Shown here piece by piece: positions 8,977-53,926 of a stretch of DNA of 64,000 nt (positions are counted from its first letter, which is position 1; every line of letters starts with the position of its first letter). Source of the stretch: a virus. Its lineage: Duplodnaviria > Heunggongvirae > Uroviricota > Caudoviricetes. A program made the position numbers and the translations under genes. Under the pieces are notes generated by a model, which was not told the origin of the DNA, searched no databases, and saw nothing but the letters and a program-made list of their open reading frames with translations. The stretch covers positions 59,096 through 123,095 of IMG/VR virus record IMGVR_UViG_3300029305_005988. One strand, 5' to 3'.

Positions 8977-8989
8977 ATCTGCACCAATC

Positions 8990-10945: not shown

Positions 10946-10954
10946 TAGTTTATA

Positions 10955-11372: not shown

Positions 11373-11386
11373 TCTATAACCCTCCT

Positions 11387-12099: not shown

Positions 12100-12123
12100 T
12101 TCCGATACCTCCGATCCCTTATT

Positions 12124-12300
12124 TTAAACCTAAGACAATTTGCGCATAGCCTCTTGTAACTCAAGACTATCTTCAAATACATAATTATCAAAATAAGGCT
12201 TCTTCTCGTCAGGTACCACTCTAATAATCTTAAATCCCAACTTGCGCAATTCATACGCCATTTTTCGAGTGTAAATCACTCTTTCATTCATTTGATCCAT
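12124..12300 (-). CDS. hypothetical small protein (~58 aa); TAG-GTT-TAA at 3' end
   Basis: MDQMNERVIYTRKMAYELRKLGFKII...; starts overlapping previous TGA. Confidence 0.4.
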
Positions 12301-12484
12301 TTCCGTTTACGCGGCGCAAATAGTTCTCTAATTGCTACTTCACCCAAGCGGCAGGCGCATCCCTGTTGATAAACTTATAAAGCTAATCAGGATTATCTAA
12401 TTTTGCCTCTTGCGCAATCAACTTATAAGTATAACCTTTTACGCGCATCTCCTTTAACTAAAATATTATTTCTTCACGAGTCAT
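12288..12484 (-). CDS. small HTH protein (65 aa) with 3 in-frame TAG
   Basis: MTREEIIF*LKEMRVKGYTYKLIAQEAKLDNPD*LYKFINRDAPAAWVK*QLENYL...; RBS gaaaggagttagaaatg. Confidence 0.45.
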
Positions 12485-12509
12485 TTCTAACTCCTTTCAC
12501 TATTATATA

Positions 12510-12580
12510 AAAATTAAGGTAGTAATTGTATCTATTTTTGTCCAAATTTTTTACCATAATACTACCTTAATTTGCCAATT
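12510..12580. repeat. inverted repeat aaggtagta...tactacctt (9-bp arms)
   Basis: seen; possible operator/terminator between minus genes. Confidence 0.4.
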
Positions 12581-12745
12581 TTTCGACGATATGTTCTTTT
12601 CATGTTTTTTCTTATCTCGTCATCTTTAATTGATCTGCAACAATCTGTTGTTATTCCACCTTTTTTCAAAAGCAAATTCAATTAAAATCGTAACAAAATC
12701 GTGTTGGTTTGAAATGCGCCTAATCTTGCCCATTGGCGCCTTTTA

Positions 12746-13102
12746 TTAACAGCCATAAGTCTTCTTTATATCATGAGTAGCATATTCCAAATGGTCAGTC
12801 ATTGCGCGAATATTTGAAAGATCAAACTGTGTAACAACCTCATCTTCATTCTAATCTAATCGCCGCTCTAAAGCATTTACTCTATCCACTAACTTATCTA
12901 CATTAGCTTCAGCGCTAATTAATCTCCAAATCAAATCTCGTAAATCATAATCAGCATCTCCAATGTGAATGATAATAGTCTGCTCTCGAAGAATAGATCT
13001 TGGAAGACCACTTAACATCTCATAATCAATCACTTCTTGTTCACATGTAATATCAACAGGCTAAGACATAAAAATCTCTTTATCAAAACTATCTATCATC
13101 AT
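12746..13102 (-). CDS. hypothetical protein with 2 in-frame TAG (ORF 12851-13033 extended both ways)
   Basis: MMIDSFDKEIFMS*PVDITCEQEVIDYEMLSGL...RRLD*NEDEVVTQF...; ATGA overlap with upstream gene. Confidence 0.4.
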
Positions 13103-13515
13103 TCTACCTCTCTTTTATAGTGTAGTGTTTTAAGCGCCGATCGTAGCTCAGAGCATTCTTTTTTAGGCACAAAATTCTTCTTAAGGTCATTGATTTGCGC
13201 ATCTATCCTCTTAATTTCTGTAATAAGGCTATCAGTTATATTTTCAATAGCATAGTCATTAGCCTTAATAACTCCACTACAATACAAATTACCGCTATTC
13301 GCACTAGCTATTCCATAAGCGGTGTTGCTTCCTTCAGTTGCTAAATCAAAAGTACAATCAACCTCCGTCGCAGAGTCCGCGCTGAGACTTAAACTGCAAT
13401 CTTTAATATATCCCTTCATTACCTCATCACCGTTTGCACTATAACAAGCAACCGAGTAGGGTCTATTAAAACTATCTCCAAACCATGCTTCATTTGTTTT
13501 CTACCAAATAGCCAT
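13099..13515 (-). CDS. hypothetical protein (138 aa) with TAG at codon 5; C-terminal LKTLHYKREVE motif
   Basis: MAIW*KTNEAWF... joins ORF 13099-13419; C-terminus shared with 32256-32477. Confidence 0.5.
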
Positions 13516-13516
13516 T

Positions 13517-13994
13517 ATTTACCTCCACTCTTTTCGCTACAAATTCCAATATTTATCATATAATCCAATAACCCCAACTGTTTTATAATGGTGCGCTCGG
13601 CGCCTTCAGGCAGCTTGTGGTCAAAAAATAATTTAATTTCATAGTTATCTCTTTCAAATGGCGACAATGCTTCAACTTCTCCCTGCTCATAATCAATAAC
13701 TAAAAGCTAATCTCCATTATCGAAACAGGTAATCACTTTTCCATCTAATTGAAGCGCACTTTTTATTCCAATTTCAGCTTTAGCATGTGCCTCTATATCC
13801 ATTTGCGCAAGGTCTTGAATATATTTACTGCCTTTTGCGCCAATCATAATGTATTTAGTTGGAGTATATGGTGTAAAATCTATGCTTTCTTTCTCGCAAA
13901 GCCGCTATAGGCGCCGATTCTTCACTATTAGTCGCCCATAGTCAAACCCAATATATGTCAATATCAAAAATAAAAACAATCCCGTCCAGAACAT
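13517..13994 (-). CDS. membrane-anchored hypothetical protein (~159 aa) with 2 in-frame TAG
   Basis: MFWTGLFLFLILTYIGF... hydrophobic N-terminus; RBS aaaaggagaagcagatg. Confidence 0.4.
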
Positions 13995-14109
13995 CTGCTT
14001 CTCCTTTTATCTCTTTAATCTTTTATACACTTTAATTATACAATAAAATTAAAATAAAGTCAAGTGTTCCTTCCCATCAGCACCTTTTCAATTACCTTTT
14101 ATTTTCTAA

Positions 14110-23075: not shown

Positions 23076-23201
23076 GGAGTGGTAGCCCAACAGGCAGAGG
23101 CAATGGACTTGTCTGATGTTCGGTAACCTAGACTGGGTCAGCACCAGTATCAGGCACCAAAAATCCATCAAGTGAGGGTTCGAATCCCTCTCACTCTACC
23201 A
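23076..23201 (+). ncRNA. 126-nt tRNA-like gene with 55-nt insertion in anticodon loop
   Basis: acceptor ggagtgg/tcactct, D-arm gccc..ggc, anticodon stem atgga/tccat enclosing 55 nt, T-arm gaggg/ttcgaat/ccctc, CCA; own upstream promoter. Confidence 0.4.
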
Positions 23202-24500: not shown

Positions 24501-25265
24501 ATGACATCAGGAATTTATATGTATTAGAACAAGGTTAATGGACAGTGCTATATTGGATAGGCAATAGACCTTGCACGGAGAAAAAAAGACCATAAAACAA
24601 GAGCCTTTAATGAATTTGAGGGTAATAATGAGTATAATTCAGTAATACATTAGGCTTTTAGAAAATATGGTTATGATAATTTTGAATATTCAGTATTAGA
24701 AGAATGTGAAATATCTTTGCTTAATGAAAGAGAACGATATTGGATTGCTTATTATAATTCTTATAAAGTTGGATATAATTGTGATGAAGGTGGCAATACT
24801 GCAAGACATTTTTGTAAATTTAATGCAGATATATTATAGGCATTAAAAAATGATTTACAAGAAACAAAAGATACCTATGAAATATTAGCAGCTCGATATG
24901 GAGTGTCCATTGGATATGTAAGCGATATTAATAATGGAAAAATATGGCATCAAGATGGTGTAATTTATCCATTACGGAAAAAGCAGTCTAAAAGTATTCA
25001 ATATTGTTCTTTATGTGGAGTTGAGATTTCTGGAGAAGGACAGACGGGCTTATGTGTTGCCTGTGCAAATGCAAGATATAGAAAAGTAGAACGTCCAACT
25101 CGAGAAGAACTAAAATATCTTATTAGAAATTTTACTTTTGTAGAAATTGGTAAGCAATTTGGAGTTGCAGATAACACTATTAAAAAATGGTGTAAAGCAA
25201 TGAATTTACCTTCTCGTAAAAAAGATATTAATTTATATTCAAACATAGAGTGGGAAGCTCTTTAA
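24501..25265 (+). CDS. GIY-YIG homing endonuclease with C-terminal HTH/Zn module; 4 in-frame TAG (24525, 24558, 24651, 24837)
   Basis: MTSGIYMY*NKVNGQCYIG*AIDLARR...; paralog 45405 has Q where this has TAG (FHQAIRKYG vs IH*AFRKYG); ORF 24903-25265 is its tail. Confidence 0.7.
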
Positions 25266-25280
25266 CTTTCCACCAAGATA

Positions 25281-25358
25281 TGGAGTCGTTAGTTCAGTAG
25301 GTTAGAACGCCAGATTGTGAGTCTGGATGTCGTCAGTTCGAGTCTGACACCTCTCCCC
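25281..25358 (+). tRNA. tRNA-His(GTG) (extra 5' G; 2 acceptor mismatches)
   Basis: stem ccaga/tctgg loop ttgtgag; T-arm gtcag/ttcgagt/ctgac; CCA. Confidence 0.45.
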
Positions 25359-25529
25359 ATAAAAACTGAGTCCATCTGATGCGGCACCAGCGCTCAGGAA
25401 AGTAGGATGGATAAAAAGCATTAGCCCAGACATCTGCGGGAAAGCGCTCCTGACAAGTACCGACCGAAAGCGAAATGCGGGATAAGTGAACAGCACCTTA
25501 TCATTTACATAATAACAAAGGAGCAATAT

Positions 25530-25703
25530 ATGAAAAAATCAATCGGTCTTGAATGCCCTCATTGTGGTTATCAGTGGACAACTAAATATTGGATTTGGAT
25601 TTTGAAGGCGCCGATGCACTGGTTTAAATTTCGTGATTGGCGTGATTACAGATATACTAAGTGCCCGAGCTGTGGAAAACGAGGCTGGGTTAAATATTCT
25701 TAA
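25530..25703 (+). CDS. zinc-ribbon small protein (57 aa)
   Basis: CPHCG...CPSCG; RBS aaaggagcaatatatg. Confidence 0.4.
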   Translation: MKKSIGLECPHCGYQWTTKYWIWILKAPMHWFKFRDWRDYRYTKCPSCGKRGWVKYS

Positions 25704-25705
25704 TT

Positions 25706-25770
25706 GATTTTTAATAAAAATTTTGTTATAATATATATACAAAATGAGAAATGAAAAAAGAAAACATTTG
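25706..25770 (+). promoter_or_regulatory. AT-rich-class promoter driving tRNA-Asp leader
   Basis: ttgatttttaataaaaattttgttataat. Confidence 0.5.
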
Positions 25771-25895
25771 GTGACTGGATTTAGCGGTAAGACCTGTTCA
25801 GATAAACGCGTATCAACAGGCGCAAGTTAATCAGTCTTAAATCAGGAAACTTTCCTTTGGGCGCGAATTGCCCATCTGAGCCAGTCCTTTGCTAC

Positions 25896-25970
25896 GGCGG
25901 TATAGTTCAGCGGTGGAGCGCCTGACTGTCTATCAGGATGTCGAGGGTTCGAATCCCTCTACCGTCGCCA
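25896..25970 (+). tRNA. tRNA-Asp(GTC)
   Basis: stem cctga/tcagg loop ctgtcta; T-arm gaggg/ttcgaat/ccctc; CCA. Confidence 0.6.
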
Positions 25971-26199
25971 AAGTCTAATTTGTTAGTTATCCGAGACTTT
26001 AAACCTAAACTGACAAAAGGCGATTATCAACGCCGCACGCGAGCCTTTGAAAGATAAGTAGTGAAAAGCTGGAGTACTACAGTCTGATACGAATCGTATG
26101 TCATCGTGAGCCAACGGCATACTGCGGGACCTTGCCCGTATAAAACCAAGGAGGGTCAGAAGTGGAGTGAGCTACCGAGTATAAACGCTCACGATTTAT

Positions 26200-26275
26200 G
26201 CTGTGATAATTCAATTGGGAGAAGAGCCGGCGTCAAGCAGGCTAGTTGTGGGTTCGAGTCCCACTCACAGGTCCA
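26200..26275 (+). tRNA. tRNA with UCA-centred anticodon loop (cgTCAag, G33) - opal-reading/Sec-like candidate or mis-parse
   Basis: acceptor 6/7 (G1-G72 mismatch); T-arm gtggg/ttcgagt/cccac; CCA; anticodon stem gccgg/caggc with one mismatch. Confidence 0.3.
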
Positions 26276-27009
26276 GAGGTGCCAATGCCTAATCATTGGT
26301 CAGGAGTCTAACCTGTGCGGTATTACGCAGAGCGACCGGGGTCCCGCATCCGTGAGCAACGGGAAAAATAATAGGTGCCACGAAGCCAATAACTAGGGAG
26401 TGAATATTACTTGATGTAATTAGCCCATTCGATAAAATCCTAGGTACGAATGAGATACAGCTCTGTGAGGCGATAAAATGCAGTGGTAAATGGAGTTTGA
26501 TGAACAGCCTATTCCACCCCGCTCTAAGGGTGAGTACTCGAGGTCTGGAGCAACGAGTAAATAAATAAATAAAGTCCCCAGAGTCGTTTTGCGGTGTCGG
26601 AGAAAACCGCCATAGAGCGCAAGTGTTGTGGGTCGAGCGGGCTTAGAGCAATGGCCCAATTAGGTAAGGACAAGGTTCATGGAAATGCGCGGAAGTGACA
26701 AAAACCCTCAGTTTTCCTTGTTTTCACAAAACAAGGTGGGCTCAAGTTGGGCATCTACTGTGACCTCTGGGAGGAGTCCCCTTCGATCCTCCACCTATTC
26801 AACAGAGTGAGTAGAGAGCGAAGTCGCAAACGCTATATAAAAAGACGAGTAATAGTGTTGAGTCTTAAGACACAGGCAGCGGTGGGCCAAATATCCGCTG
26901 GAGTTTCGCCTCCAAGATGAAGTGCGAGATTTATGATGTAAGTCGTGATTAGCTCTGAAGTGGACGCTTATTTAAGCAGCTTCGGTCTACGGCGCGGGTC
27001 CAGCTTTCC

Positions 27010-27085
27010 GCATCCAAGAGCTGGAATTTCGGGGTGTAGCCTAGTTGGTTAGGCGCTTGCTTTGGGAGCAAGATCACGCGGGTTC
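27010..27085 (+). tRNA. tRNA-Pro(TGG)
   Basis: stem cttgc/gcaag loop tttggga; D-stem gcct/aggc; CCA. Confidence 0.6.
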
Positions 27086-27260
27086 GAGTCCTGTCACTCC
27101 GTCCAATATTTACACCCTAAAGATTCTTAGGGCAACAATCGGCGCCAATCCATCTCCCAGCAGTTGGATAATACGCGCAAGAACTTTATGGAGTTCGGAG
27201 AGTCTTTCTCTTGCTGGGTATAAAAACTCTCCTCCTCTTTTTCCATTAAGAGATACATAT

Positions 27261-27347
27261 GCGTTTGTGGTGTAATTGGCAGCCACGCAGCGTTGAGGTC
27301 GCTGTGCTCGAAAGAGCGTGTAGGTTCGACTCCTATCAGACGCACCA
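27261..27347 (+). tRNA. tRNA-Leu(GAG), class II
   Basis: stem cagcg/cgctg loop ttgaggt; variable arm gctcgaaagagc; A73; CCA. Confidence 0.6.
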
Positions 27348-27389
27348 TTGTTTGCAGCGTAGCAAAGAAAAACCTGCTGCAGAGAGCTA

Positions 27390-27440
27390 TCATCTAACCA
27401 CCATTAGATGATAGTAGCCTCCAAGTTTTTAATTGATTTT
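27390..27440 (+). terminator. long hairpin terminator (gctatcatctaa..ttagatgatagc + gttttt)
   Basis: seen. Confidence 0.55.
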
Positions 27441-27582
27441 ATTAAAAATTTATGATATAATAATATTGTAATAATGAGAAAGGAAATAAAAATAAAAAGA
27501 AATGAGAAATGTAAAGCGAAAATTTAGAGCCTTGGAGAATTAATCCATCTAAGGTATTTAAAACATAGATGGGTTTTAATAT

Positions 27583-27656
27583 GAGCCCGTCATATAATGG
27601 TAGTATTTGCGACTTTTAATCGCACCGTCGGAGTTCGACTCTCCGCGGGCTCACCA
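27583..27656 (+). tRNA. tRNA-Lys(TTT)
   Basis: acceptor gagcccg/cgggctc; loop cttttaa; T-arm cggag/ttcgact/ctccg; CCA; own promoter. Confidence 0.65.
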
Positions 27657-27812
27657 TAAAGAATTTAATTGATTTCTTAAAAAATTTATGATATAATAAA
27701 TATGTAAGATAAAGGCGATGCAATATAAGTAGCGAGAAACAAAGACACTCGCCGCTTCCATCAACAAATTCTCGATTCAAAATTGCTCGAAAGAGGTCGC
27801 TAATCGTAATAT

Positions 27813-27888
27813 TGGGTCTTCGCCTAAACGGTTAGGGCACAGGACTTTGACTCCTGCAGTCTAGGTTCGAATCCTAGAGACCCAGCCA
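27813..27888 (+). tRNA. tRNA-Gln(TTG)
   Basis: U1:A72, G73, tc-gcc D-arm (Gln-like); stem cagga/tcctg loop ctttgac; CCA. Confidence 0.6.
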
Positions 27889-27923
27889 AATATTGGAGGT
27901 TAGCCTAGTGGTCAGGCAGTCGG

Positions 27924-28392
27924 CTGTTTTAACTGACTTTAATCTTTAATGAAAAAAGATAGTGAACAGTAAGCAAATTGGCAATATTACCGAAGTATCT
28001 GTTATGCTTGAGTTTTTAAAATTAGGATATAATATTTTAACTCCTTATGGAGATTGCGAACGATATGATTTTGTTGCAGATATTAATCATAAATTTTATA
28101 AAATTCAAGTAAAAACAGCAAAAAAAGATAATGGTAAAATCGAATTTAATACAGCATCCACTCATTATGTAGATGGAAAATGTATTCATGACTCTTATAC
28201 AAAAGATGAAATTGATTACATTGCAACTTATTTTAATAATAAGTGTTATTTAATTCCAATTGAGGAATGTGGAAAGCGCTCTGCTTCAATTCGTTTTGAA
28301 GCTCCTAAAAATGGACAAACCAGAGGAGTTCGAATGGCAGAAGATTATGAGTTGGAGGAAGTAATTAAAAGATTAAACTGATGTTAAAGCAA
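27924..28392 (+). mobile_element. intervening element in tRNA anticodon loop (group I intron-like or novel) encoding PD-(D/E)XK-like nuclease
   Basis: only ~40 nt 5' and ~11 nt 3' of non-ORF sequence, too little for a canonical group I core. Confidence 0.4.
27962..28381 (+). CDS. putative PD-(D/E)XK-fold homing endonuclease (139 aa), paralog of 30291-30905
   Basis: GDCERYDFVADIN...KIQVK motif block conserved with paralog (GEDCRYDMIVDIN...RVQVK); lies inside split tRNA. Confidence 0.45.
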   Translation: MNSKQIGNITEVSVMLEFLKLGYNILTPYGDCERYDFVADINHKFYKIQVKTAKKDNGKIEFNTASTHYVDGKCIHDSYTKDEIDYIATYFNNKCYLIPIEECGKRSASIRFEAPKNGQTRGVRMAEDYELEEVIKRLN

Positions 28393-28653
28393 CCGACCTA
28401 CGGGAGTTCAATCCTCTCACTTCCAGCCAGTCGATTATCGACAAAAACCGTTATCATGAATTTGGCAGTTAAACTACCACCGACTCTAACAATTAGCACC
28501 CAGTATGCGGTCAAGTATTGAATATGAGGTATGTGGCTTAGTGGGAAACGGTATATCAAAGACGCAAAGTAAACTGCCGCTTGGATGATTTTTTCATGGT
28601 TTTCCTCCCTTCAACGGGTTTGGGCATTACCGTTAAAACAATGCCTTTAGAAT

Positions 28654-28730
28654 GTCAGTCTAGCCCAATTGGCAGAGGCACTAGTCTTAGGAACTAGTTA
28701 GTGTGGGTTCGACTCCCTCGATTGACACCA
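28654..28730 (+). tRNA. class I (short variable arm) tRNA with anticodon TAG (Leu codon CUA) - atypical
   Basis: stem ctagt/actag loop cttagga; acceptor gtcagtc/gattgac; T-arm ~gtggg/ttcgact/ccctc; CCA. Confidence 0.45.
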
Positions 28731-29419
28731 TGGATGCTACTTCCAAGCCGTAAGGTGAATGTAGCGGTTTTTACGATGAGGTTTTGACGGTTTTTCCAAG
28801 AGTCGTAATCCCCATAATATAATTATTAAAATAAATCGGCAACTCTTGGGTGTTGATGTACAAGTAGCACCATCAACCTCTCCTATGCGTTCCGTATATA
28901 AAGACTCGGAAGAGGTAACAGAGCGTAGGTGACTATACGGTATCAAGAGGCGGAATCCGTACGCGCGACGAGGCATGATGCGAAAAATCAAAAAGGTGGC
29001 AGCCTGCTCGAGAATATATGGTATTATAAATTTAATCGGTATCAATGTGGAAAGACACTGCCAAAGGTTGACAACCATTATGAGTTGTTGAAACAGAGAT
29101 ACTCGATATAAGTAAATAATCTTGATTACATTAAGTAGTTTGAGGCGATTACTACTGTGAAATGCAGAGTAGGCTTGAGAGAGCGCTCACGAACAAGAAT
29201 TGAAATCAAATGCTGAGAAGATCGTGGATTTCGTCCATCCGAAGCACAGAGTAGGATGCGATTAGCGACGAGGATGTGGTGAGGTTCTGGTAGACCAACC
29301 AATGGTGTCTAAGTCAGATGTAGATTGAAAGATGTAACGGTTATTTACTCGAATTGTGGAAGGTAGCAAATACCCGATGCCCAAAAGAAGAAGATATGCG
29401 GTTAGCTGACCTAAAGCTT

Positions 29420-29460
29420 CACCTCTTTATTGACAAAATAAAAAATTTTTGTTATAATAA
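29420..29460 (+). promoter_or_regulatory. promoter of GIY-YIG HEG (ttgacaaaataaaaaatttttgttataat)
   Basis: seen. Confidence 0.5.
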
Positions 29461-29539
29461 ATAAGTAATCGAAAGTTCATTGATAATTGCATAAGAAAAT
29501 ATATAAGACATCTATAAAAGAAGGAGTTGAATTTATTAT

Positions 29540-30176
29540 GGGTTTTATTTATAAAGTTACAAATAAAGTCAATGGTAAAGTTTATATTGGAAAAACTTTA
29601 GACTCTTCTATAGAGGAGCGCTTTAAAGAACATATTAAAGAAGCTAAAGTAAAACAATATAATCGACCTTTTCATCTGGCTTTAAATAAGTATGGAGCAG
29701 AAAATTTCATAATTGAAGAAATTGAGCAAATTCCTGCAAATGAATTAAGCAAAAGAGAAATATATTGGATTTCTTTTTATCATTCTTATATTCACGATCC
29801 AGTTTCAAACGGATATAATGCCACTAAAGGTGGCGAAGGATCGCTAGAATATGACTATGATAAAGTTATTGTAGAGTATCATAAAACACAAAGTATTACT
29901 CAAACAGCCAATAATTTAAAATGTTCTATATCTACAGTACAGAGAGCTATTCGAGAATATAATGTTCCCGTATATAAACAGCGCGCCTGTGGAGTTAAAA
30001 TTATTGGCTATAATGATATGGAAGAATTAACTTTTGATTCTATCCGACAAGCTGCTGAATTTTTATCAAAACGATTAAATAAAGATATGCAGACAATACG
30101 AAAGCGAATTACTTCTATTATTAATCATAAACCTAATCAAAAAGGGTATGGTTATTACTGGAAAGAACAAGAATAA
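29540..30176 (+). CDS. GIY-YIG homing endonuclease (no in-frame TAG)
   Basis: MGFIYKVTNKVNGKVYIGKT...ERFKEH...YWISFYHS...GYNATKGG; ORF track 29487-30176. Confidence 0.7.
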
Positions 30177-30228
30177 CTATATTTTCTTATGCAATTAAGT
30201 TGAACTTTTTAATATGCACCTGTCGCAT

Positions 30229-30919
30229 AGTGGCCGATTGCACTCGCCTTGTTCGTAAATTTAAGACTTCCTATAAAGGAGGTTGATATAATGAATGAGA
30301 CAAAGATTAAAGGTTTAACCACTGAGCTTCAATGTCAATTATTCTTTACTCAATTGGGTTATAATGTTAGTATCCCGTTAGGAGAAGATTGTAGATATGA
30401 TATGATAGTAGATATTAATGGCATACTCTTGCGAGTTCAAGTAAAACACGCAACTGTTGCAGAAAATGGTATTACTATTTCTACTCGTTCTACTCAATCT
30501 AACACTTCAGGATCAAAAAGTTTAACCTATAATAAGGAACAAATTGATTATTTTGCAACTTTTTATAATAACCAGTGTTATTTAATTAAAGTTGAAGAAT
30601 GTTCAACTCAAAAAACTTTAGCTTTTACTAAAATTCAACAAATGCAGAACTTCATTGATGATTTTTTGGCTGAAAAAGAAATTCAAAGAATCTTAAATGG
30701 GGAAGATGCTATAGAAGATACTGTAATAGCAAATGTATATCAATATGATTTGCGTGGCAACTTAATAGGAGCCTATTCAAGTGCCGTTGCAGCAGCTGAA
30801 AGTTTAGGAGATCGCTCTAAAAATTCTCATATTACCAAATGCCTTAATGGGCATAGGCAAACAGCATATGGGTATAAATGGAGCAGGACACTATTGAAGT
30901 CTTAAACATTATGATCAAA
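30229..30919 (+). mobile_element. intervening element in tRNA anticodon loop encoding nuclease ORF
   Basis: no G at predicted 3' splice position, so a group I assignment is doubtful. Confidence 0.35.
30291..30905 (+). CDS. putative PD-(D/E)XK-fold homing endonuclease with C-terminal DNA-binding tail (GYKW), paralog of 27962-28381
   Basis: conserved block with paralog; RBS ataaaggaggttgatataatg. Confidence 0.45.
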   Translation: MNETKIKGLTTELQCQLFFTQLGYNVSIPLGEDCRYDMIVDINGILLRVQVKHATVAENGITISTRSTQSNTSGSKSLTYNKEQIDYFATFYNNQCYLIKVEECSTQKTLAFTKIQQMQNFIDDFLAEKEIQRILNGEDAIEDTVIANVYQYDLRGNLIGAYSSAVAAAESLGDRSKNSHITKCLNGHRQTAYGYKWSRTLLKS

Positions 30920-31505
30920 GCGAGAGACCTTGTCCGCGTTGGTTCGAATCCAACTAGGTGCTCCATGGCGTCAAGAAGAAAACCTGCGCGTGGTGACGCT
31001 GCACGCTCTTACCCAGTGGCTAATTTCTTCATGCATCACCTCCTTTCGATGCAAAAAGGCGGCGCACGCCTGTAAGTCCCCAAGCTATCTTGGCTAAAGT
31101 GTTGCGGGGAGCATACCCTGACAAACCTCTGTGGCTGGGTTATAAGCTCGGAAAATAGACACTTCTCCATTTAGTGAGAAACCGTTAGTGTCACTAAGCG
31201 AGGGTGGCGGGAAAAACCTTCGCTTCTTCCCATTTAAACTTGATATACGACAGGTGAAGTCGATAAAACTGCCTTGGTAGGGTAGCGCCCTACGGAAGAG
31301 ACGATAGAGCGCAAGAGGGCGTCCCAAGATTATCAAGTACAATTTATATTAGCTTAAGAGAGCCTTTGTCCCAAACACAGCGCTCCGTCAAAAGAAACCG
31401 TTTAGCACGGACTCGCAAGAGATAGTACTCGGTAGGGTTGGGAAAAGCGTGGATACAATTAGCTACTCCACGGGAAATTTCAATTGACAATCTTAAGCGC
31501 CTTCT

Positions 31506-31580
31506 GCAGGTGTCGTATAATGGCTATTACCTCTGCCTTCCAAGCAGATGATGGGAGTTCGATTCTCCCTACTTGCTCCA
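31506..31580 (+). tRNA. tRNA-Gly(TCC)
   Basis: stem tctgc/gcaga loop cttccaa; T-arm gggag/ttcgatt/ctccc; CCA. Confidence 0.6.
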
Positions 31581-31657
31581 GCCCTTTGGGCGACATTTTT
31601 CTACCCTTCCTTTCTGCTTTACCGCGCGCTGTTCGTTGGCGCGCGGTAATTGAACAT
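31581..31657 (+). promoter_or_regulatory. perfect 10-bp hairpin taccgcgcgc..gcgcgcggta between tRNAs (processing site?)
   Basis: seen. Confidence 0.35.
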
Positions 31658-31734
31658 GGTGATGTACCCGAGTGGACTAAGGGCGCGCTCTGCAAAAGCG
31701 TTGTGCGTTGATTCGAATTCAACCATCACCTCCA
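31658..31734 (+). tRNA. tRNA-Cys(GCA)
   Basis: acceptor ggtgatg/catcacc; stem gcgct/agcgt loop ctgcaaa; CCA. Confidence 0.6.
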
Positions 31735-31736
31735 TA

Positions 31737-31765
31737 TAGTCACTCTTAAGAGTGGCTTTTTTCTT
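31737..31765 (+). terminator. rho-independent terminator ending tRNA array
   Basis: cactcttaagagtg+gcttttttc. Confidence 0.65.
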
Positions 31766-31888
31766 TTTATTCTGTGCGGAGCGCCAAGGCTCGTATTTTG
31801 AAATAAAAAGGTGGTTTTAGATATTTTGTATTGAAATTTTCAAAATTATATGTTATAATTTATTAAAGAATAATAAGAGGTAATTGAT

Positions 31889-32266
31889 ATGATAAGTTAT
31901 GATAAAGTCTGTACAATAGCAAAAGACTATGAAGCAGATATTCGTGAATTTAGATTAGATGGCGACCTTGGGCGCCTAATGGATTTCTTAGAGGCAGTGG
32001 TGGGCGCTGATCGGTTAATTTTAGTAGAAGATTTTTATAAAGCTCTAACAGATAATGAGAAAAAAGCATTTATAGCAATTAGAGAAACAATTGGCTTCTC
32101 TGGTAATATTTCAATTGTTAAAATGATACAAAAAACAAACCTTTCGCGCCCTGTTTGGACTTCACTGTTGGCGAAAATGGAAAAATTTGGAATTGCGCAA
32201 GTTAAAAGTCAAGGAGTAAAAGGAACTTATATTGAAATATCAAAGGAGATTAACAATGCCTTCTAA
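31889..32266 (+). CDS. winged-helix DNA-binding protein (125 aa)
   Basis: KTNLSRPVWTSLLAKMEKFGI HTH-like; promoter+RBS. Confidence 0.45.
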   Translation: MISYDKVCTIAKDYEADIREFRLDGDLGRLMDFLEAVVGADRLILVEDFYKALTDNEKKAFIAIRETIGFSGNISIVKMIQKTNLSRPVWTSLLAKMEKFGIAQVKSQGVKGTYIEISKEINNAF

Positions 32267-32477
32267 AGAAGAAACTTTAAAACAAGCTCAAGACGACATG
32301 ATAGAAGCAATGAGAAAAATTCAAAGGGCAGTTAGCTCTTATGGAATATCAATGCAAGAAGCTATGGGCGCCTTGGCGCAACTTTCAAAAACAGCAGAAG
32401 AAACCACTTTACTTCCAGGTGATGCTGAGCGTCGCGCCAAATATAAAACACTTAATTATAAACACGAAGTGGAATAA
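32256..32477 (+). CDS. small helical protein (73 aa) ending YKTLNYKHEVE
   Basis: RBS caaaggagattaacaatg; C-terminal 11 aa near-identical to 13099-13515 protein; directly upstream of MVP-like gene. Confidence 0.45.
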   Translation: MPSKEETLKQAQDDMIEAMRKIQRAVSSYGISMQEAMGALAQLSKTAEETTLLPGDAERRAKYKTLNYKHEVE

Positions 32478-32560
32478 AGGTAGAATATAAATTCTGCCTT
32501 TATTTTTTATAAAATTTATGATATAATAAATTATAAAATGAAAGAAAGGAAATAAAAAGA

Positions 32561-42220: not shown

Positions 42221-42319
42221 TGGGGGGTCGCTTAATGGTCATAGCAGCGGTCTCTAAAACCGCCAGAGCCTACGGGTCTGCTCCGTAGTATGTGGGTTCG
42301 AGTCCCACCCCCCCAGCCA
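42221..42319 (+). tRNA. amber-suppressor tRNA(CUA), Gln-type identity, with 28-nt extra (variable) arm
   Basis: stem gcggt/accgc loop ctCTAaa; U1:A72, G73, tc-gct D-arm as in tRNA-Gln; variable arm ctacgg-gtctgct-ccgtag hairpin; T-arm gtggg/ttcgagt/cccac; CCA. Confidence 0.6.
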
Positions 42320-42321
42320 AT

Positions 42322-42357
42322 TGTGCCTCCTTCGTGAGCTTTGAAGGAGGCTTTTAA
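42322..42357 (+). terminator. rho-independent terminator
   Basis: gcctccttcgtgagctttgaaggaggc+tttt. Confidence 0.65.
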
Positions 42358-42378
42358 TCTATCAATAAGGAGTAACTA

Positions 42379-42876
42379 ATGAACAATAAAAAATTAGATA
42401 CTTATCTTCGCAAAGAATTACGGAAGATGGGTCATGATTATAAGCGCGAAAAGGCAAGATGCGCACGCCTTTATCCCGACTGGCGCGACGATGAATTCAA
42501 TATGCTAGACAATCTCTTTATATGGGGATATAATACAAATCCAAATACAACGCCTTCATTTTGTTCTTGGGATGATGCTTATATTTACTTTAATCGTCAA
42601 ACTAAGAAATATTATATGACTATAGATACAGGTTTCTATGGACTGAATTATGATGCGGATTTGGCTCGGACGGAGAGCGACCGACTTTCTCAAATCGACG
42701 AAGCTTTTAGAAATTTTTTAATCGAAAAAGGGTTACCAATGCGCGCGGATATTTTTCCATTTGAGGACCCGGCGCTCGAAGCAGATACTTTAAATGAGTT
42801 GTATGTTAAGTTCCGCATAATGATTGAAGGATATAAAATTTATAATTTAAATAAAGAAAATAAACCACAGAGTTAA
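42379..42876 (+). CDS. hypothetical protein (165 aa)
   Basis: ORF+RBS, terminator follows. Confidence 0.5.
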   Translation: MNNKKLDTYLRKELRKMGHDYKREKARCARLYPDWRDDEFNMLDNLFIWGYNTNPNTTPSFCSWDDAYIYFNRQTKKYYMTIDTGFYGLNYDADLARTESDRLSQIDEAFRNFLIEKGLPMRADIFPFEDPALEADTLNELYVKFRIMIEGYKIYNLNKENKPQS

Positions 42877-42895
42877 TCTGTGGTTTATTTTGTTG
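42860..42895 (+). terminator. rho-independent terminator
   Basis: aaaccacagagttaatctgtggttt+attttgttg. Confidence 0.65.
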
Positions 42896-43049
42896 AAATT
42901 TTTGAAAAAATATGTTATAATATAGTATAAGTAAATAAAAATGAATAAAAAATAAGATTGGTGATATTATCCTATCCTTGGGCAAAGTTATATAAATTAT
43001 TACAAGTAATTTTTATATATAATAACAAGATAAAAGGAGATGAATAAAA

Positions 43050-43901
43050 ATGACTTATACTCTAAAAAATGGTGAGACTATTGAATCTATACCAATTGGA
43101 CGTTCCTCTGTGATTATAGGAGAAAAAAGTCCAAGTGGAATGCTAACAGTTTGTGATCGAGGCCCTGCTCCTATTAGCGGGAGAGGCGCCACCGTAATCT
43201 GTCAATGCTAGTGCGGAAAATATACTCTTATTAAATTAAATGAGTTGCGAACAGGTAATACTAAATCTTGTGGTTGTTATGCACAAGAAAAAGCAAAAGA
43301 AAATGGTAAATATGTAGGCTCTTTACCTAAAAAAGCAAAAGATTATACACTTATAGATAATCCTTTTTATACTTTTATTCAAAGAACAGATAAAAAAGAT
43401 ATTTCAAATAGTTTCTTTTGGATAGTACAGTGTAAAAGATGCGGCAAACAATATGAAGAAGTGCCTTCTCAAATTATTTCTACCACTCGAGCACGAGGCA
43501 ATAATCCTTGTAGTTGTTGGAAACATTTAAGTAAAGGAGAGCAAAAGATCATAAATCTGCTTTTAAATAACAATATTTCCTTTTCACAACAAGTGACTTT
43601 TAAAGATTGCCTTTCTCCACTAGGGAACCCTTTAAAATTTGATTTTTTTATTGAACAAAAGTATTTAATTGAATTTGATGGTGAGTAGCATTTTTTACCT
43701 CAACAATTTGGAAATAACGAATCTGGAGAAGAAAAATTAAAGCTTACTCAAGAATACGATGCAATTAAAAACCAATGGTGTAAAAATAATGGAATTCCGC
43801 TAATAAGAATTCCTTATACTCATTACAGTCAATTAAATATTAAAGATTTATTATTAGAAACAAGTAATTTTATATTAAAGGAGAAAATAAATGCCGAATA
43901 A
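43050..43901 (+). CDS. Zn-finger + Vsr/DUF559-like (PD-(D/E)XK) endonuclease, HEG-like; 2 in-frame TAG (43209, 43686)
   Basis: RBS aaaaggagatgaataaaaatg; ...VICQC*CGKY...KFDFFIEQKYLIEFDGE*HFLPQQFGN...; ORF 43245-43688 is the middle segment. Confidence 0.5.
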
Positions 43902-45171
43902 AATTTATAATGAAGATAGTACGCAACATATATCTCCTCGAGAGTTTACACGAAAAAGACCTGGTACCTATTGTGGTTCAACCGAGTATAGCACACAGCT
44001 TATTCGAGAGCTATTCGCCAATGCTTTAGATGAACACAATATAGGCCATGGTAATGTAATTTCAATCGAGGCTGATACAAAAAAGAACTTGTATACGGTT
44101 ACAGACTTAGGACAAGGCTTTATCCCTGGCGCGCCAAGAGAAAATGGGGAAACAATGTTTTCAGAATGTTTCTCGGTTATTAATACTTCAGGCAAGTATG
44201 ATGATGCTGATGATTCGATCTATGGTGGAAGTGCTCTAGGACTCAATGGTATAGGCATGAAGTTAGTCTGTTACCTTTCAAGCTGGTCTCAAGCTACAAC
44301 AACCAATGGCAGCGGCAAGAGAGAAACAATTACCTATAAAGATGGTTTGTTTGAATCGCGTCAAATTACCGACGAAAAGAAAGATATTCACGGTACAACA
44401 ATTAGTTATCAACCAGATCCTCAATTCTTCCAGCATCAAGAAGCAAACTTTGACGAGTTGAGAAAGATGTTTACCGACATCGCCGCACTTTGCCCCATGC
44501 TTACTATTGAACTTACTGTTGACGGAAAAAAAGAAATATTCCACTCTTCAAGAGGTTTAAATGACTTGATTGATGCAAAAGTTGGTGATAATGAAATTCT
44601 TTCAAATCGTTTTATTGCGCGTAGAGAGTCGGGCGCAGATCTCTTTGATATTTGCTTAACTTATACTTCTAATTATTCAGAAGATGTAACGGGTTATGTT
44701 AATTTTGGTTTAACTGAAAGCGGCGTTCATATGACGGCTTTGAGAACTAATTTAACAAGACTAATTAATAAATTTGCGAATGATAAAAAGATGTTTAAAG
44801 CAGGAGAGTCAAATCTTACTGGACAGGAGCTCTCTGAAGGACTTGTAATTATTTTCAATCTTAAAGCAAAAAAGGTTGCTTATGATAGCCAGTCAAAAGT
44901 AAGAGTTGTTGACATTGATAAGACATTGATTAATCAGACTCTAAGTGAAGACTTTGCTCAATGGCTTGAGTCTAATCAAAAGGATGTTAAAATTATTATT
45001 GACAAAGCGCTAAGTGCTCGTAGAGCAAGAGAGGCTGCTAAAAAGGCGCGCGACGCGGCTCGAGGCGACAAAAAGAAAAAGGAAAAGGCGCTTAAGTTTG
45101 ACTCTAAACTAGCAGATTGTTATTCAAAGGTTCGCGCCAACTGTGAGATCTATGTAACTGAGGGTAAGTGA
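43891..45171 (+). CDS. gyrB: DNA gyrase/topo II subunit B, exon 1 (GHKL ATPase + transducer), ends inside TOPRIM motif
   Basis: GHKL ATPase motifs; ...CEIYVTEG then K-stop from intron. Confidence 0.8.
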   Translation: MPNKIYNEDSTQHISPREFTRKRPGTYCGSTEYSTQLIRELFANALDEHNIGHGNVISIEADTKKNLYTVTDLGQGFIPGAPRENGETMFSECFSVINTSGKYDDADDSIYGGSALGLNGIGMKLVCYLSSWSQATTTNGSGKRETITYKDGLFESRQITDEKKDIHGTTISYQPDPQFFQHQEANFDELRKMFTDIAALCPMLTIELTVDGKKEIFHSSRGLNDLIDAKVGDNEILSNRFIARRESGADLFDICLTYTSNYSEDVTGYVNFGLTESGVHMTALRTNLTRLINKFANDKKMFKAGESNLTGQELSEGLVIIFNLKAKKVAYDSQSKVRVVDIDKTLINQTLSEDFAQWLESNQKDVKIIIDKALSARRAREAAKKARDAARGDKKKKEKALKFDSKLADCYSKVRANCEIYVTEGK

Positions 45172-46273
45172 AAACTATTGCCCGAATCCTTTTTACCATT
45201 AATCAGTGGGGTCACAATTATTGTGGCTAACGGGGAAAGCTGACCATTACACAGATATGTCAAAATCTGTTTAGGTGAAGTCAATCCCGTGGCAAAATTT
45301 TAAAATTTTTAGGTCAAATCTTGATAAATTTCTTACTCTCACTTTCATATATAAATAGAAGGAGACAGAGTACTTCTAATATATTTGAAATAAGGAGAAT
45401 AATAATGATTGGAATTTACAAGTACACAAACAAAATTAATGGGAAACACTATATTGGATAGAGCATTAATTTAGAAATGCGCAAATATGCACATAAATCT
45501 TCTGCTTTTAATGAAAATGCTAAAGATTATAATGCTCAATTTCATCAAGCAATTCGTAAATACGGTTGGGATAATTTTGATTATGAAGTAATCGCAGAGT
45601 TAACCCCAGAAGAATATACGAAAGAAGGACTTGATGCCTTAGAAAGATATTTTATTAAATATTACGACTCTTTTCATAATGGCTATAATGCCACCGAAGG
45701 CGGAGATGATAATCCACTTAGGGCGCAAAAAGGCTCTGCCAATGGGCGTGCGCTTTTAACAGAAGAGGATGTTATTTATATTAGAGAATGTTATAATGCA
45801 CATATTCCTTTTAGAGAGGTTTATGCAGAGTATCAAGATAAAATATCTAAAAGAGGGCTTCAAAAAGTATGGTGGTTTGATACATGGAAAGATATCTATC
45901 CAGAGTATCATACAGAAGAAAATAAAAAATGGCATGCTACAAAAGCAAAAGCTAATGCTTCAGAGGTTGCCGCAAATAATAAACGCAGTTTTACCGAAGA
46001 AGAAGTTAAAAAAATGAGAGAAGAGTACGACAATGGAATGTCACCAAAGCAAATTTGGCTAAGATATGCACCAGAGAAAGCTTGGTCGACAGTTTATAAT
46101 GTTGTAACAAGACAGACCTATAAAGATATTTAAAATAAGCTGTATCGACTATCCCGAGTGAGATCGGGAGTAGAAATGTTATTGATACGCATTTCGAAAT
46201 AGAGGACACGATGATGACCTGACAAGTCGGAGTGAAGAGATAGTCAGTGCCTATAGAAATATAGGAGCACATG
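45166..46273 (+). mobile_element. group I-like intron in gyrB carrying GIY-YIG HEG
   Basis: 5' exon ends ggT, intron ends atG; splice restores YVTEG|DSASGN = TOPRIM EGDSA motif; candidate P1 pairing gggu/gccc. Confidence 0.55.
45405..46133 (+). CDS. intron-encoded GIY-YIG homing endonuclease with in-frame TAG at 45459
   Basis: MIGIYKYTNKINGKHYIG*SINLEMRKYAH...GYNATEGG; ORF 45477-46133 is its body. Confidence 0.7.
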
Positions 46274-46912
46274 GATAGTGCGTCTGGAAACCTTAAGTCA
46301 GCTCGAAACAATGAGTTCCAGGCTGTAATGCCAGTTCGAGGTAAAATCCTTAATTGTCAAAAGAATACGCTGGATAAGATCCAAAAGAACGCAGAGATTA
46401 TGACTATGATTGAGGCATTTGGTCTTAAAGCAGACCCTAAGACGATGAAACTTACCTATGACAAAGACTCACTGCGTTATGGCAAGATTATTATAGCTGC
46501 TGATGGAGATGCTGATGGTAGCCATATTCGAAACCTGTTTTATACTTTTATCTGGAACTTCTGTCCGCAACTTATTCAAGAGGGATATGTGTATGCTCTT
46601 GTAGCGCCGCTCTATAAGATTACGATGGGTAAAGATACTTATCTATATTTAAGAGACGATAAAGAATTGGCTGAGTTCCAAGAGAAAAATAGAGGAAAAA
46701 AGTATCAGGTCAATAGATTTAAGGGATTAGGTGAAATGTCAGAGGACGAGACTGAAATTCTTGTAGACCCAGGCTTAAGAGTGCTAAATCAGGTTGCGGT
46801 TGAAGAAGCAAAGAAAGCAGATGTCTTATTTGATCAATTGATGGGCGTTGGGGTTGCAGCGAGAAAGAAGTTTATTCAGGATCATAGCAAGGAGGCTAAA
46901 TATGGAGTATAA
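46271..46912 (+). CDS. gyrB: DNA gyrase/topo II subunit B, exon 2 (TOPRIM + tail)
   Basis: DSASGN...PVRGKILNCQKNT...IIIAADGDADGSHIRNL ~ GyrB EGDSAGGS...PLKGKILNVEKAR...IMTDADVDGSHI. Confidence 0.75.
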   Translation: MDSASGNLKSARNNEFQAVMPVRGKILNCQKNTLDKIQKNAEIMTMIEAFGLKADPKTMKLTYDKDSLRYGKIIIAADGDADGSHIRNLFYTFIWNFCPQLIQEGYVYALVAPLYKITMGKDTYLYLRDDKELAEFQEKNRGKKYQVNRFKGLGEMSEDETEILVDPGLRVLNQVAVEEAKKADVLFDQLMGVGVAARKKFIQDHSKEAKYGV

Positions 46913-52680: not shown

Positions 52681-52734
52681 TTAAAAAAGGAAATAAGGGG
52701 TAATTGAATAAATTACCCCTTAAATTGTAAAAAT

Positions 52735-53926
52735 GATAGCATTATGTGTAATATCAATTCTTCTTGGCGCAGGCGGTCTTGCTTATGGAGTATGGACTAA
52801 AGCCACATCTGGAAAGGTTAACCGCTATACAATAGAAGAAAATTAGAAACTAGAAGAACTCAATTAGTCATTACATGCAACTCGCAAAAGTCTAGAAGCT
52901 CAAAATGACTTATTGATAAAATCTAACAATGAAATTTCTCAAAGGTATGAAGAGAACTGTAAAAAAACAAAAAATTCTTACGACGAATTAAATCAATTAA
53001 CTCAATAGAAATTAAAGTTAATAGATGAAATTCAAATTAAACAAATTGAAAAAGCGGGAGTGGAAGCGCAAATCACTGCTTTAAGTAGCTCTGTAGAAAC
53101 AATGTCAGGCGACTTAAAGGTAGCTGCTCGCGCATCATTCGAACAATATTGTGATGCTCTTGATTATGAGTATAAGAAAAAAGAACAAGAGTTCGATACA
53201 GAAATAGATACTCTTGATCAACTATACTTTAATAGATTACAAGAGCTTGATGCAAGAGAAAAAGGATTAATTGAAGAGCGTAGACAAGATATTGAGATAC
53301 TTGCAAAACTATTCTATGATAAGCAACAATCAATGTCTAAAGAGTTGCAAGAAGAAGAAGCGGCAATGCGCGCCGATCTAGATTCAATTCGTAAAGAGCT
53401 AGAAAAAATTCGTGCAACTAAGGCCGCCGCGATGGAGGCACAGTTACGCGAAGAAGAAATTAAAAACAAAGCAACATTTTATACCCTTCAGCTTAATGAT
53501 GCAGATAAGCGCGATGTTGCATATCTTCAAAGCATTGAATATAACTTGCGCGAACCAAGACCTTTACGCATGCTTATATGGTCTACATTCTATCGAGATA
53601 AAGTCAATGACCTTGCGGCGCGCGTAGGCGCGTTGGGCGCAAGTGGAATATATAAGCTAACCCATATTGACTCTGGTATATCGTATATCGGTCAAGCTAA
53701 GGACATTAAAGAGCGTTGGGTAACACATGTTAAATGCAGCTTGGGTATCGACACCCCTGTAACAAGTCAACTCTATGCATTTACAAGAGAAAAGGGTATT
53801 GACAACTTTACTTTTGAAGTATTAGAGAAATGCAGTATAAATGAATTAAATGAAAAGGAGAAGTTTTATATCGACCTTTATCAAACATATGATTTTGGAT
53901 TGAATAAAACTCGCGGAAATGGATGA
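52735..53926 (+). CDS. TM-anchored coiled-coil protein with C-terminal GIY-YIG nuclease domain; 3 in-frame TAG
   Basis: MIALCVISILLGAGGLAYGV... then 3 TAG, joins ORF 53060-53926 (GIYKLTHIDSGISYIGQAKDIKERW). Confidence 0.5.

Follow-up and report, generated by a model that had tools for sequence, protein, structure and literature searches.

What are homing-type nuclease genes doing in and between the tRNA genes of a large phage, and what becomes of the tRNAs that they interrupt? This question is raised by a 64,000-nt stretch of a phage genome of the class Caudoviricetes (IMG/VR record IMGVR_UViG_3300029305_005988, positions 59,096–123,095), which is called the window here and is numbered from its first nucleotide. 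Its tRNA array spans 18.8–31.7 kb. A sequence-only reading had listed eight nuclease genes of four families, located in tRNA genes, beside tRNA genes or inside gyrB. Profile and fold searches find all eight at these places, within 2 nt: four GIY-YIG genes, two PD-(D/E)XK genes of PF11645 (the family of I-Ssp6803I), a single HNH gene, and a single Vsr/EDxHD-like gene. They are called genes A to H in their order along the window (Table 1). Two (B and D) are inside tRNA genes, two (A and C) are beside tRNA genes, and one (G) is inside gyrB. The whole is very probably best explained by a recoded phage of ~129 kb that was independently colonised by homing genes of four families. The crowding of homing genes in large phages and the recoding of stop codons with suppressor tRNAs are both known already, and the finding as first stated is ordinary. 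Two points appear to go beyond known homing-gene patterns: the concentration of recoded TAG codons in nuclease genes, and the tRNA-embedded pair, genes B and D, for which a fate at the RNA level can be proposed.

Gene B, whose product is 139 aa, and gene D are each enclosed in a split tRNA gene. The window was compared with its relatives L018–L023. L021, L022, and L023 each have an intact tRNA-Asn(GTT) in the syntenic position, flanked by Gln(ttg) and Leu(tag). Ahead of Gly(tcc), relatives also keep an 85-nt tRNA that is intact and has the loop CTTGTAA, and the exons of the split tRNA(UGU) gene are nearly identical to the empty allele of L022. Based on the loops of these intact tRNAs, the only junction consistent in both genes is between tRNA positions 36 and 37, and both inserts are placed there. 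Once the empty alleles have fixed the junction in this way, the last nucleotide of the insert is C (Asn type) or A, and not G. The non-coding part is ~42 nt in insert B and ~50 nt in insert D, and the remainder is open reading frame (ORF). Similarity to intact tRNAs was uninformative for identifying the split tRNAs, and synteny with the relatives decided. Standard tRNA finders miss or mislabel such genes: the Asn gene is called Asp, the UGU gene is called 'SeC', and the suppressor tRNA described below is called '???'. At low stringency, ARAGORN makes 124 calls that are mostly spurious, and the analysis leaves these aside.

This arrangement is seen widely among viruses. All 79 viral PF11645 loci adjoin tRNAs, and 58 of them are inside a split tRNA. 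The insert is 442–488 nt long in 52 of these 58 loci. In the split viral loci, the first bases of the insert are predicted to pair with its last bases, so that the anticodon stem continues as a long hairpin whose loop contains the ORF. The helix is near-continuous and is broken by a 1x1 or 2x2 loop at 32/38 and, 8–10 bp beyond, by a small internal loop. Among 15 distinct examples of the Asn-type helix, 93% of cells pair, compared with 72.5% after shuffling (none of 500 shuffles reaches 93%) and 44–52% when the partner is slid. Double changes are seen in 17 of 22 pairs, and one G-U pair is invariant. The invariant G-U pair and the many other G-U pairs indicate that sense-strand RNA does the pairing, and speak against a DNA inverted repeat. 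When the junction is set at 36/37, the insert's final three nucleotides complement the anticodon in 34 of 46 cases; when loci of different anticodons are combined as a mismatched control, the share is 10%. These three nucleotides change along with the anticodon (GTT, TGT, TAC, TGC, CAT, and GAT).

One possible account takes the tRNA inserts for ordinary group I introns that splice themselves, like the intron that houses I-Ssp6803I in tRNA-fMet, with a core that overlaps the ORF or is too divergent to be recognised. The only known homes of PF11645 genes are group I introns in tRNA-fMet and tRNA-Arg; 36/37 is a known group I site; and divergent tRNA group I introns can evade the Rfam model RF00028 (PMC13011429). 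The shortest reported bacterial tRNA group I intron, however, is 184 nt (PMC13011429), far longer than the non-coding parts of inserts B and D. The terminal nucleotide is C or A instead of G, and the 5′ exon end has its partner in the insert's 3′ end rather than in an internal guide sequence on the 5′ side. Neither insert matches any Rfam intron or ribozyme family at E <= 10, although the gyrB intron described below is detected in the same way. Over the tRNA array, no group I or group II intron and no self-cleaving ribozyme is found in Rfam at gathering and permissive thresholds. Because they have no terminal G, little non-coding sequence and no Rfam match, the tRNA inserts are not recognisable group I introns, and neither gene B nor gene D resides in a self-splicing group I intron as a PF11645 gene would be expected to do. 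The group I account is therefore improbable. A hammerhead reading of the conserved motif CUGAUG was rejected by eye; it has no stem II and no GAAA, and its TGA is the stop codon of the ORF.

The hairpin suggests a different account. The long hairpin built from the two insert ends and the anticodon would mark the insert for excision by protein enzymes, and an RNA ligase, for example the phage's own, would rejoin the tRNA halves. We give this close to an even chance. It is consistent with the pairing that tracks the anticodon, the fixed architecture, and the presence of RNA ligase, P-loop kinase, and metallophosphoesterase genes in the window (37636–39942), which could form a heal-and-seal set able to join tRNA halves and might thereby serve splicing. 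It is also quite conceivable, while short of likely, that nothing is spliced. The cassette would then destroy a dispensable phage tRNA, and the tRNA body and the hairpin would serve the selfish gene: RNase P and 3′-end processing would free the unit from the array transcript, and the tRNA scaffold would stabilise the endonuclease mRNA. The lack of both a ribozyme and a terminal G agrees with this, as do the usual dispensability of individual phage tRNAs and the 21 of 79 viral homologues that lack a recognisable enclosing tRNA. The near identity of the tRNA(UGU) exons to the empty L022 allele implies a recent insertion, so that the integrity of the exons is uninformative on function. Near-identical inserts are also present in diverged tRNA-Asn genes, where intact exons can reflect repeated fresh invasion. 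Loss of the tRNA nevertheless leaves unexplained why the last three bases of the insert follow the anticodon over at least six tRNA types, which is expected for the definition of a splice site and needless for mRNA stability. The window has no other tRNA-Asn, whereas L021, L022, and L023 all keep one at this site, and no intact copy of the interrupted anticodon is present nearby in eight split loci read with 3 kb of flank. Besides, a homing gene located within another gene otherwise nearly always comes with a splicing element. Excision by a protein and religation have difficulties of their own. We know of no nuclease that cuts at both required sites, staggered by 3 bp in a helix, and the stagger of canonical RNase III would, by our own reasoning, be 2 bp and not 3. 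The intact exons could be explained by recent invasion of intact genes.

If the inserts are spliced by proteins, the structure is not the one used in archaea and eukaryotes. Pairing between anticodon and intron is common to the tRNA inserts and the bulge-helix-bulge class, but the two 3-nt bulges and the 4-bp helix that define the latter are not seen. No match to tRNA_int_endo is found among the 28 window ORFs scanned, a set that leaves small ORFs aside. PF11645 endonucleases are distant relatives of tRNA-splicing nucleases, within the same fold superfamily. It can be speculated, with some doubt, that PF11645 inserts at 36/37 constitute a new class of ribozyme-less introns with splice sites defined by a hairpin, cut by a protein and joined by a ligase, possibly that of the phage heal-and-seal set. 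The arrangement itself, a gene of the I-Ssp6803I type located exactly at 36/37 of many different tRNAs, without a ribozyme and with a covarying hairpin that pairs with the anticodon, is widespread (58 of 79 viral loci). In the searched literature, PF11645 genes are not described in ribozyme-less tRNA inserts. If the tRNAs are restored, this would be protein-based tRNA splicing in bacteria or phages, a process so far regarded as exclusive to archaea and eukaryotes. Without restoration, it would be a tRNA-scaffolded selfish gene that routinely kills phage tRNAs.

Three known systems are comparable to the tRNA inserts. I-Ssp6803I of the Synechocystis tRNA-fMet intron (PDB 2OST) belongs to the same family and has its home in a tRNA anticodon loop as well. 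Unlike the I-Ssp6803I intron, the inserts of the window consist of an ORF and a hairpin of ~45 nt, with no ribozyme and no terminal G; the site is 36/37 rather than 33/34; and the phage genes that serve as hosts are those of tRNA-Asn, Thr, Ala, Val, Met, and Ile. In bacterial 23S rRNA, intervening sequences are excised by RNase III, and the rRNA fragments stay unligated and functional. These intervening sequences resemble the tRNA inserts in being looped out by a long stem formed from their two ends, but a cut in the anticodon loop needs ligation, and the stagger here is 3 bp instead of 2. Lak megaphages carry 'enigmatic' tRNA introns of no matching class (PMC6784885). The likeness extends to anticodon-loop insertions of no intron class in TAG-recoded phages and to the nested tRNA-like inserts of the window's relatives, whereas the inserts of the window carry a PF11645 gene and a defined hairpin, and the Lak text consulted does not mention intron endonuclease genes. 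A new intron class, if real, would probably account for the Lak introns too.

Shorter insertions are also present in tRNA genes of the window and its relatives. At 23076–23201 of the window, a further tRNA has a 49-nt insert in its anticodon loop and no ORF. A Leu-like tRNA of the relatives, located in the same slot of the array (between Tyr and Ser(gct)), has a 108-nt insert, and another tRNA of the relatives has a 78-nt insert (L021 1478–1669; L023 2563–2754 and 4320–4473). The 108-nt and 78-nt inserts fold like tRNAs and end in CCA, which suggests a tRNA nested in a tRNA, as in Lak phages.

The nuclease assignments behind these comparisons are borne out by profiles, so that the outcome which the sequence-only reading had named as its refutation, motifs left unconfirmed in profile searches, does not arise. 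Pfam GIY-YIG, PDDEXK_5, and HNH_3 score above their curated cut-offs, and gene F is recognised through PHROG families together with invariant residues. PF01541 is above the cut-off in genes A, C, and G, where it is the N-terminal catalytic domain, while gene H contains the GIY-YIG domain at its C-terminus. In the PF11645 family of genes B and D, residues E11, D36, Q49, and K51 are invariant in 13 homologues, in keeping with the catalytic pattern D...(D/E/Q)xK. Gene E scores 39.8 bits with HNH_3 against a cut-off of 24.8. As to DNA-binding modules, gene C has sub-threshold NUMOD1 and helix-turn-helix matches, gene A has weak helix-turn-helix matches, and gene G has none.

Table 1. Nuclease genes, split tRNA genes, and associated features of the window (positions in window coordinates).
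Feature	Position	Strand	Description	Evidence
Gene A	24501–25265	+	Free-standing GIY-YIG, between tRNA-Ala and tRNA-His; 4 in-frame TAG	Pfam GIY-YIG 29.7 bits (cut-off 22.6)
Split tRNA-Asn(GUU)	27894–28429	+	Exon 1 27894–27928; insert 27929–28390 (462 nt); exon 2 28391–28429	ARAGORN, introns allowed
Gene B	27962–28381	+	PD-(D/E)XK (PF11645), fills the tRNA-Asn insert	PDDEXK_5 E 1.7e-35; PDB 2OST E 1e-6
Gene C cassette	29432–30204	+	GIY-YIG; own promoter 29430–29458 and ORF 29538–30176	Pfam GIY-YIG
Split tRNA(UGU), 85 nt	30216–30965	+	Exon 1 30216–30252; insert 30253–30917 (665 nt); exon 2 30918–30965	ARAGORN; uninterrupted gene of L022
Gene D	30291–30905	+	PD-(D/E)XK (PF11645) and NUMOD1, within the tRNA(UGU) insert	PDDEXK_5 E 8e-20; NUMOD1 E 2.5e-6
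Gene E	35161–35787	+	Free-standing HNH (HNH_3), between vault-like and denV-like genes	HNH_3 E 3e-10; phrog_59 E 8e-27
RNA ligase	37636–38814	+		Pfam PHA02142 OB and RNA_ligase
P-loop kinase	38916–39383	+		Pfam AAA_33
Metallophosphoesterase	39376–39942	+		Pfam Metallophos_2
Amber suppressor tRNA(CUA)	42221–42319	+	Gln type, extra 24-nt variable-arm hairpin	Anticodon loop CUCUAAA
Gene F	43050–43901	+	Free-standing Vsr/EDxHD-like, CxCxCG...SCGC zinc modules; 2 in-frame TAG	PHROG homing-endonuclease families E 2e-35
gyrB exon 1	43891–45165	+	ATPase and transducer domains, ends ...YVTEG	Pfam DNA_gyraseB
gyrB group I intron	45166–46273	+	1108 nt	Junction logic and weak Rfam Intron_gpI
Gene G	45405–46133	+	GIY-YIG encoded in the gyrB intron; 1 in-frame TAG (codon 19)	Pfam GIY-YIG
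gyrB exon 2	46274–46912	+	Toprim and C-terminal domain, starts DSASG...	Pfam Toprim, DNA_gyraseB_C
Gene H	52733–53926	+	Membrane anchor, coiled coil and C-terminal GIY-YIG; 3 in-frame TAG	Pfam GIY-YIG, residues 304–385

How did these genes come to their sites? Each of the seven genes other than H is missing or differently placed in relatives with 76–93% identity in the neighbouring 829-aa protein. Presence or absence among relatives is exact for genes A, C, D, E, and F, and at gyrB a mosaic boundary coincides with the intron's 3′ end. The site of gene A is empty in L021 and L022. Cassette C is an exact 773-nt segment that is lacking in L021, L022, and L023; it stops 11 nt upstream of the tRNA(UGU) gene, and its promoter is a perfect match to TTGACA-N14-TGNTATAAT. 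The insert with gene D is an exact insertion between positions 6559 and 6560 of L022. Gene E is present in L022 and not in L020 or L021. The segment 42956–43877, which contains gene F, is absent from L018, L019, and L020. Gene F is slotted between a gyrB promoter-like site (42893) and gyrB, and overlaps the gyrB start by 11 nt. Near-identical Asn-type inserts are located in tRNA-Asn genes with different, compensated stems, which speaks for recent movement between genomes.

This pattern of presence and absence among related phages supports mobility of seven of the eight nuclease genes, presumably by cleavage and homing. The same pattern could also come from deletion, and all of the evidence is comparative, with cleavage, homing, and splicing inferred from it. 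The sequence-only reading had gone further and proposed extensive intragenomic mobility. Mobility stands, but the intragenomic part is not supported: the GIY-YIG genes A (24501) and G (45405) are 51% identical, in the catalytic domain only; the GIY-YIG genes of the window range from 30 to 51% in this domain; and the PD-(D/E)XK genes B and D are 36% identical. Since paralogues are only 36–51% identical, the copies seem to have been acquired separately and not by recent spread within the genome. This fits an independent arrival of homing genes of the four families from other phages. Four of the genes would have come as free-standing cassettes between genes: A and C in the tRNA array, the HNH gene E, and F between the gyrB promoter and gyrB. 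Gene G would ride in the self-splicing group I intron of gyrB. For genes B and D, the endonuclease would cut the empty anticodon-loop DNA at 36/37, and the break would then be repaired from the filled copy.

The high density emphasised by the sequence-only reading is real, with seven homing-type genes in ~22 kb of a ~129-kb genome, but such a load is common enough in large phages. A comparable density of homing endonucleases is seen in T4 and in Jug phages (PMC2988022, PMC12880540), and the dense mixed loads of the Jug phages include PDDEXK_5 (PMC12880540). In T4, SegB is a free-standing homing endonuclease in a phage tRNA cluster (PMC2330249). Like SegB, genes A and C are self-contained cassettes between tRNA genes that are present or absent among relatives, and C has its own promoter. 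Unlike SegB, gene A has four TAG(Gln) codons; the likeness is one of type and location. In the tRNA region of phage T5, the F-Tfl nucleases are also free-standing homing endonucleases.

The gyrB gene carries a group I intron, recognised from its junctions and a weak core match, that cuts the EGDSA motif of the Toprim domain. Exon 1 ends with TAT GTA ACT GAG GGT at 45165 and is followed by AAG TGA, and exon 2 opens with GAT AGT GCG after ...CACATG. At these junctions (...GAGGGU|AAGUG and ...CACAUG|GAUAGU), the last nucleotide of the 5′ exon is U and that of the intron is G. A GCCC guide is located 15 nt into the intron. The joined exons give YVTEG|DSASG, which restores EGDSA, and the amino acids around the junction are the same as in L020, whose uninterrupted gyrB encodes 632 aa. 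RF00028 matches the intron with 23.3 bits (E 0.002). The strong match is limited to the J8/7-P7-P9 part and includes the core AAGAUAUAGUC and AAGAGAUAGUC. The assignment to group I therefore combines junction logic with a score below threshold (23 bits against a gathering cut-off of 50), which tells against it to some extent. Gene G has abundant homologues, among them one that its source names 'group I intron endonuclease'.

The gyrB intron resembles the td intron of T4 with I-TevI in the U that closes the 5′ exon, the terminal G, the core match in the P7 region, the looped-out ORF, and the intron-less allele in a relative. It differs in its host gene (gyrB, at Toprim), in the TAG(Gln) codon of the ORF, and in its Rfam score below gathering. 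Compared with L018, which has the intron, identity is 86–99% over exon 1 and the intron, 74–80% exactly from the 3′ splice site, and ~70% in gyrA. Compared with L020, most of exon 1 is ~50% identical, and the last 145 nt of exon 1 together with exon 2 are 87–92% identical. The locus thus appears as a mosaic around the intron, which fits exchange driven by the endonuclease. A single simple conversion tract is not claimed, as the block divergent from L020 stops 145 nt short of the intron.

Gene F belongs, by its conserved residues, with the Vsr-like EDxHD endonucleases, the phage homing endonucleases typified by I-Bth0305I (PMC3384342, PDB 3R3P). Residues E208, D210, Q213, H214, D238, and K241 are invariant across 25 homologues, as expected of a Vsr-like enzyme. 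In Pfam only a weak DUF2726 match is obtained, and there is no sequence-level match to 3R3P. Unlike I-Bth0305I, gene F is free-standing instead of intron-encoded and has repeated Cys modules in its N-terminal part. Homology to gene F is also seen in another setting: at 14333–17247 of L018, a NAD-dependent DNA ligase gene is split (377 aa and 276 aa) by a 323-aa ORF, the 3′ end of which is homologous to gene F.

Gene H had been listed as homing-endonuclease-like as well, which its architecture and conserved position speak against. It has a hydrophobic segment at the N-terminus, ~270 residues of coiled coil, and no DNA-binding module, and its three TAG codons are early in the gene. For the L018 gene in this position, a precomputed GIY-YIG match exists but is weak, and the DNA match between the two genes is confined to the 3′ end. 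Gene H is thus probably a conserved membrane-anchored protein with a GIY-YIG domain, and is not counted among the homing genes.

The TAG codons that the sequence-only reading noticed in four nuclease genes (A, F, G, and H, with 4, 2, 1, and 3 codons), and left without an interpretation, are all present. The rightward genes have 10 in-frame TAG and no in-frame TAA or TGA. All 54 rightward genes terminate with TAA (34) or TGA (20), and none with TAG. The TAG positions in gene A include the Q of YIGQ and the Q of FHQA. In two GIY-YIG genes, the YIGQ motif has its Q encoded by TAG, and the FHQA paralogue uses CAA or CAG at its site. In gene F, a TAG falls at the family-invariant Q213. At the TAG site of gene G, YIGQS is seen in nine of ten homologues read, some of which may themselves stem from code-15 gene calls. 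In the gyrB-intron endonuclease of L018, TAG at codon 237 aligns with CAG in the window. An example of a predicted peptide across a TAG position is HYIGQSINLEMR. Among the 79 viral PF11645 homologues, all 21 in-frame stops are TAG.

An amber suppressor tRNA(CUA) is encoded as well (Table 1). It shares U1-A72, G2-C71, G3-C70, and G73 with the tRNA-Gln of the window. It is the positional orthologue of a 75–78-nt tRNA(cta) in L020, L021, and L022, although its 24-nt hairpin is missing from those three. Since TAG terminates none of the genes, occurs where Gln belongs, and is accompanied by tRNA(CUA), the window genome is, judged by its codons, read with TAG as glutamine, as in code 15. Code 15 has been confirmed by proteomics (PMC9523058).

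Could the in-frame TAGs be nonsense mutations instead, and the four nuclease genes decaying pseudogenes? Homing-endonuclease genes often degenerate once they are fixed, and some TAGs of homologues are at conserved non-Gln positions, such as Y29 in L005. However, all 10 interruptions are TAG, with no frameshifts; the coincidence with invariant or typical Q, the lack of any gene that uses TAG as a stop, the TAGs in other genes of the window, and the tRNA(CUA) in both window and relatives are not expected of decay, which makes pseudogenes highly improbable. Against recoding it can be held that the 24-nt extra arm of the suppressor tRNA is unusual and that its activity and charging with Gln are predictions.

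Within the rightward block, TAG is present in four of eight nuclease genes and in none of 46 other genes (Fisher p = 2e-4). Recoded TAGs are thus concentrated in selfish nucleases inside a replication block that is otherwise compatible with the standard code. Half of the nucleases would be translatable only with an active suppressor tRNA, and their synthesis would plausibly be delayed. The enrichment is limited to the rightward block, and leftward genes at 9.6–14 kb carry TAG too, which weakens this reading. Borges et al. described an intron endonuclease recoded from TGA to Trp in Agate phages and proposed delayed endonuclease production (bioRxiv 10.1101/2021.08.26.457843). As in that case, a suppressor tRNA is encoded and the recoded codons are concentrated in a homing endonuclease located in an early gene; here, the change is TAG to Gln, and four nuclease genes from two families are involved. 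The proposal of a delay in endonuclease synthesis through recoding, already published, may thereby be extended to TAG-to-Gln and to several nuclease families. The leftward block (9600–14006, minus strand) consists of small genes with 1–3 TAG codons apiece, among which the gene at 11386–12123 (minus strand) contains a tandem NYDYN-TAG peptide repeat.

The genome size of ~129 kb is based on the 829-aa vault-like protein, which has a 100% identical copy on a 128,912-bp contig. Two JGI samples hold identical 6–7-kb pieces of the window, and the phage is present in JGI samples 3300029705 and 3300032167. No close relative is found among GenBank phages, where the best gyrA matches are 39% identical, and metagenome collections contain many relatives with 65–95% protein identity. 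The 829-aa protein (32561–35050) contains a shoulder domain of the major-vault-protein type (E 2e-24) as well as a vault repeat. Thousands of its metagenomic homologues, at 65–95%, adjoin phage tRNA arrays. The rightward block 3′ of the tRNA array contains replication and repair genes (sigma factor, RNA ligase, kinase, phosphoesterase, RNase H, gyrB, gyrA, NAD-ligase, ThyX-like, DnaB, and RecJ).

The promoter TTGACA-N14-TGNTATAAT has 39 matches in the whole window, against 1.15 expected. At 180–9450 (plus strand), at least 14 near-perfect copies are spaced at 0.2–1.5 kb with only short ORFs behind each. This region looks like an early 'host-takeover' region. An alternative code for the ORF-poor first 10 kb was rejected, as TAG, TGA, or TAA read as sense yielded no long ORFs. 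A variant of the promoter with an AT-rich spacer recurs in the tRNA array and in the replication genes.

Three ORF-free stretches of 0.5–0.8 kb are located within the tRNA array, at 26276–27029, 28731–29431, and 30966–31505. Their G+C content is 48% in two and 39% in one, they are mostly conserved in relatives (72–82%), and they have no tRNA match and no Rfam match. They may be unknown structured RNAs. The tRNA-like sequence at 26200–26275 is called 'SeC(tca)' with 33.9 bits; its nucleotide 33 is G, and its anticodon stem is mismatched. Perhaps it is a pseudo-tRNA or wrongly assigned; an active opal suppressor here would be odd, since 20 genes stop at TGA.

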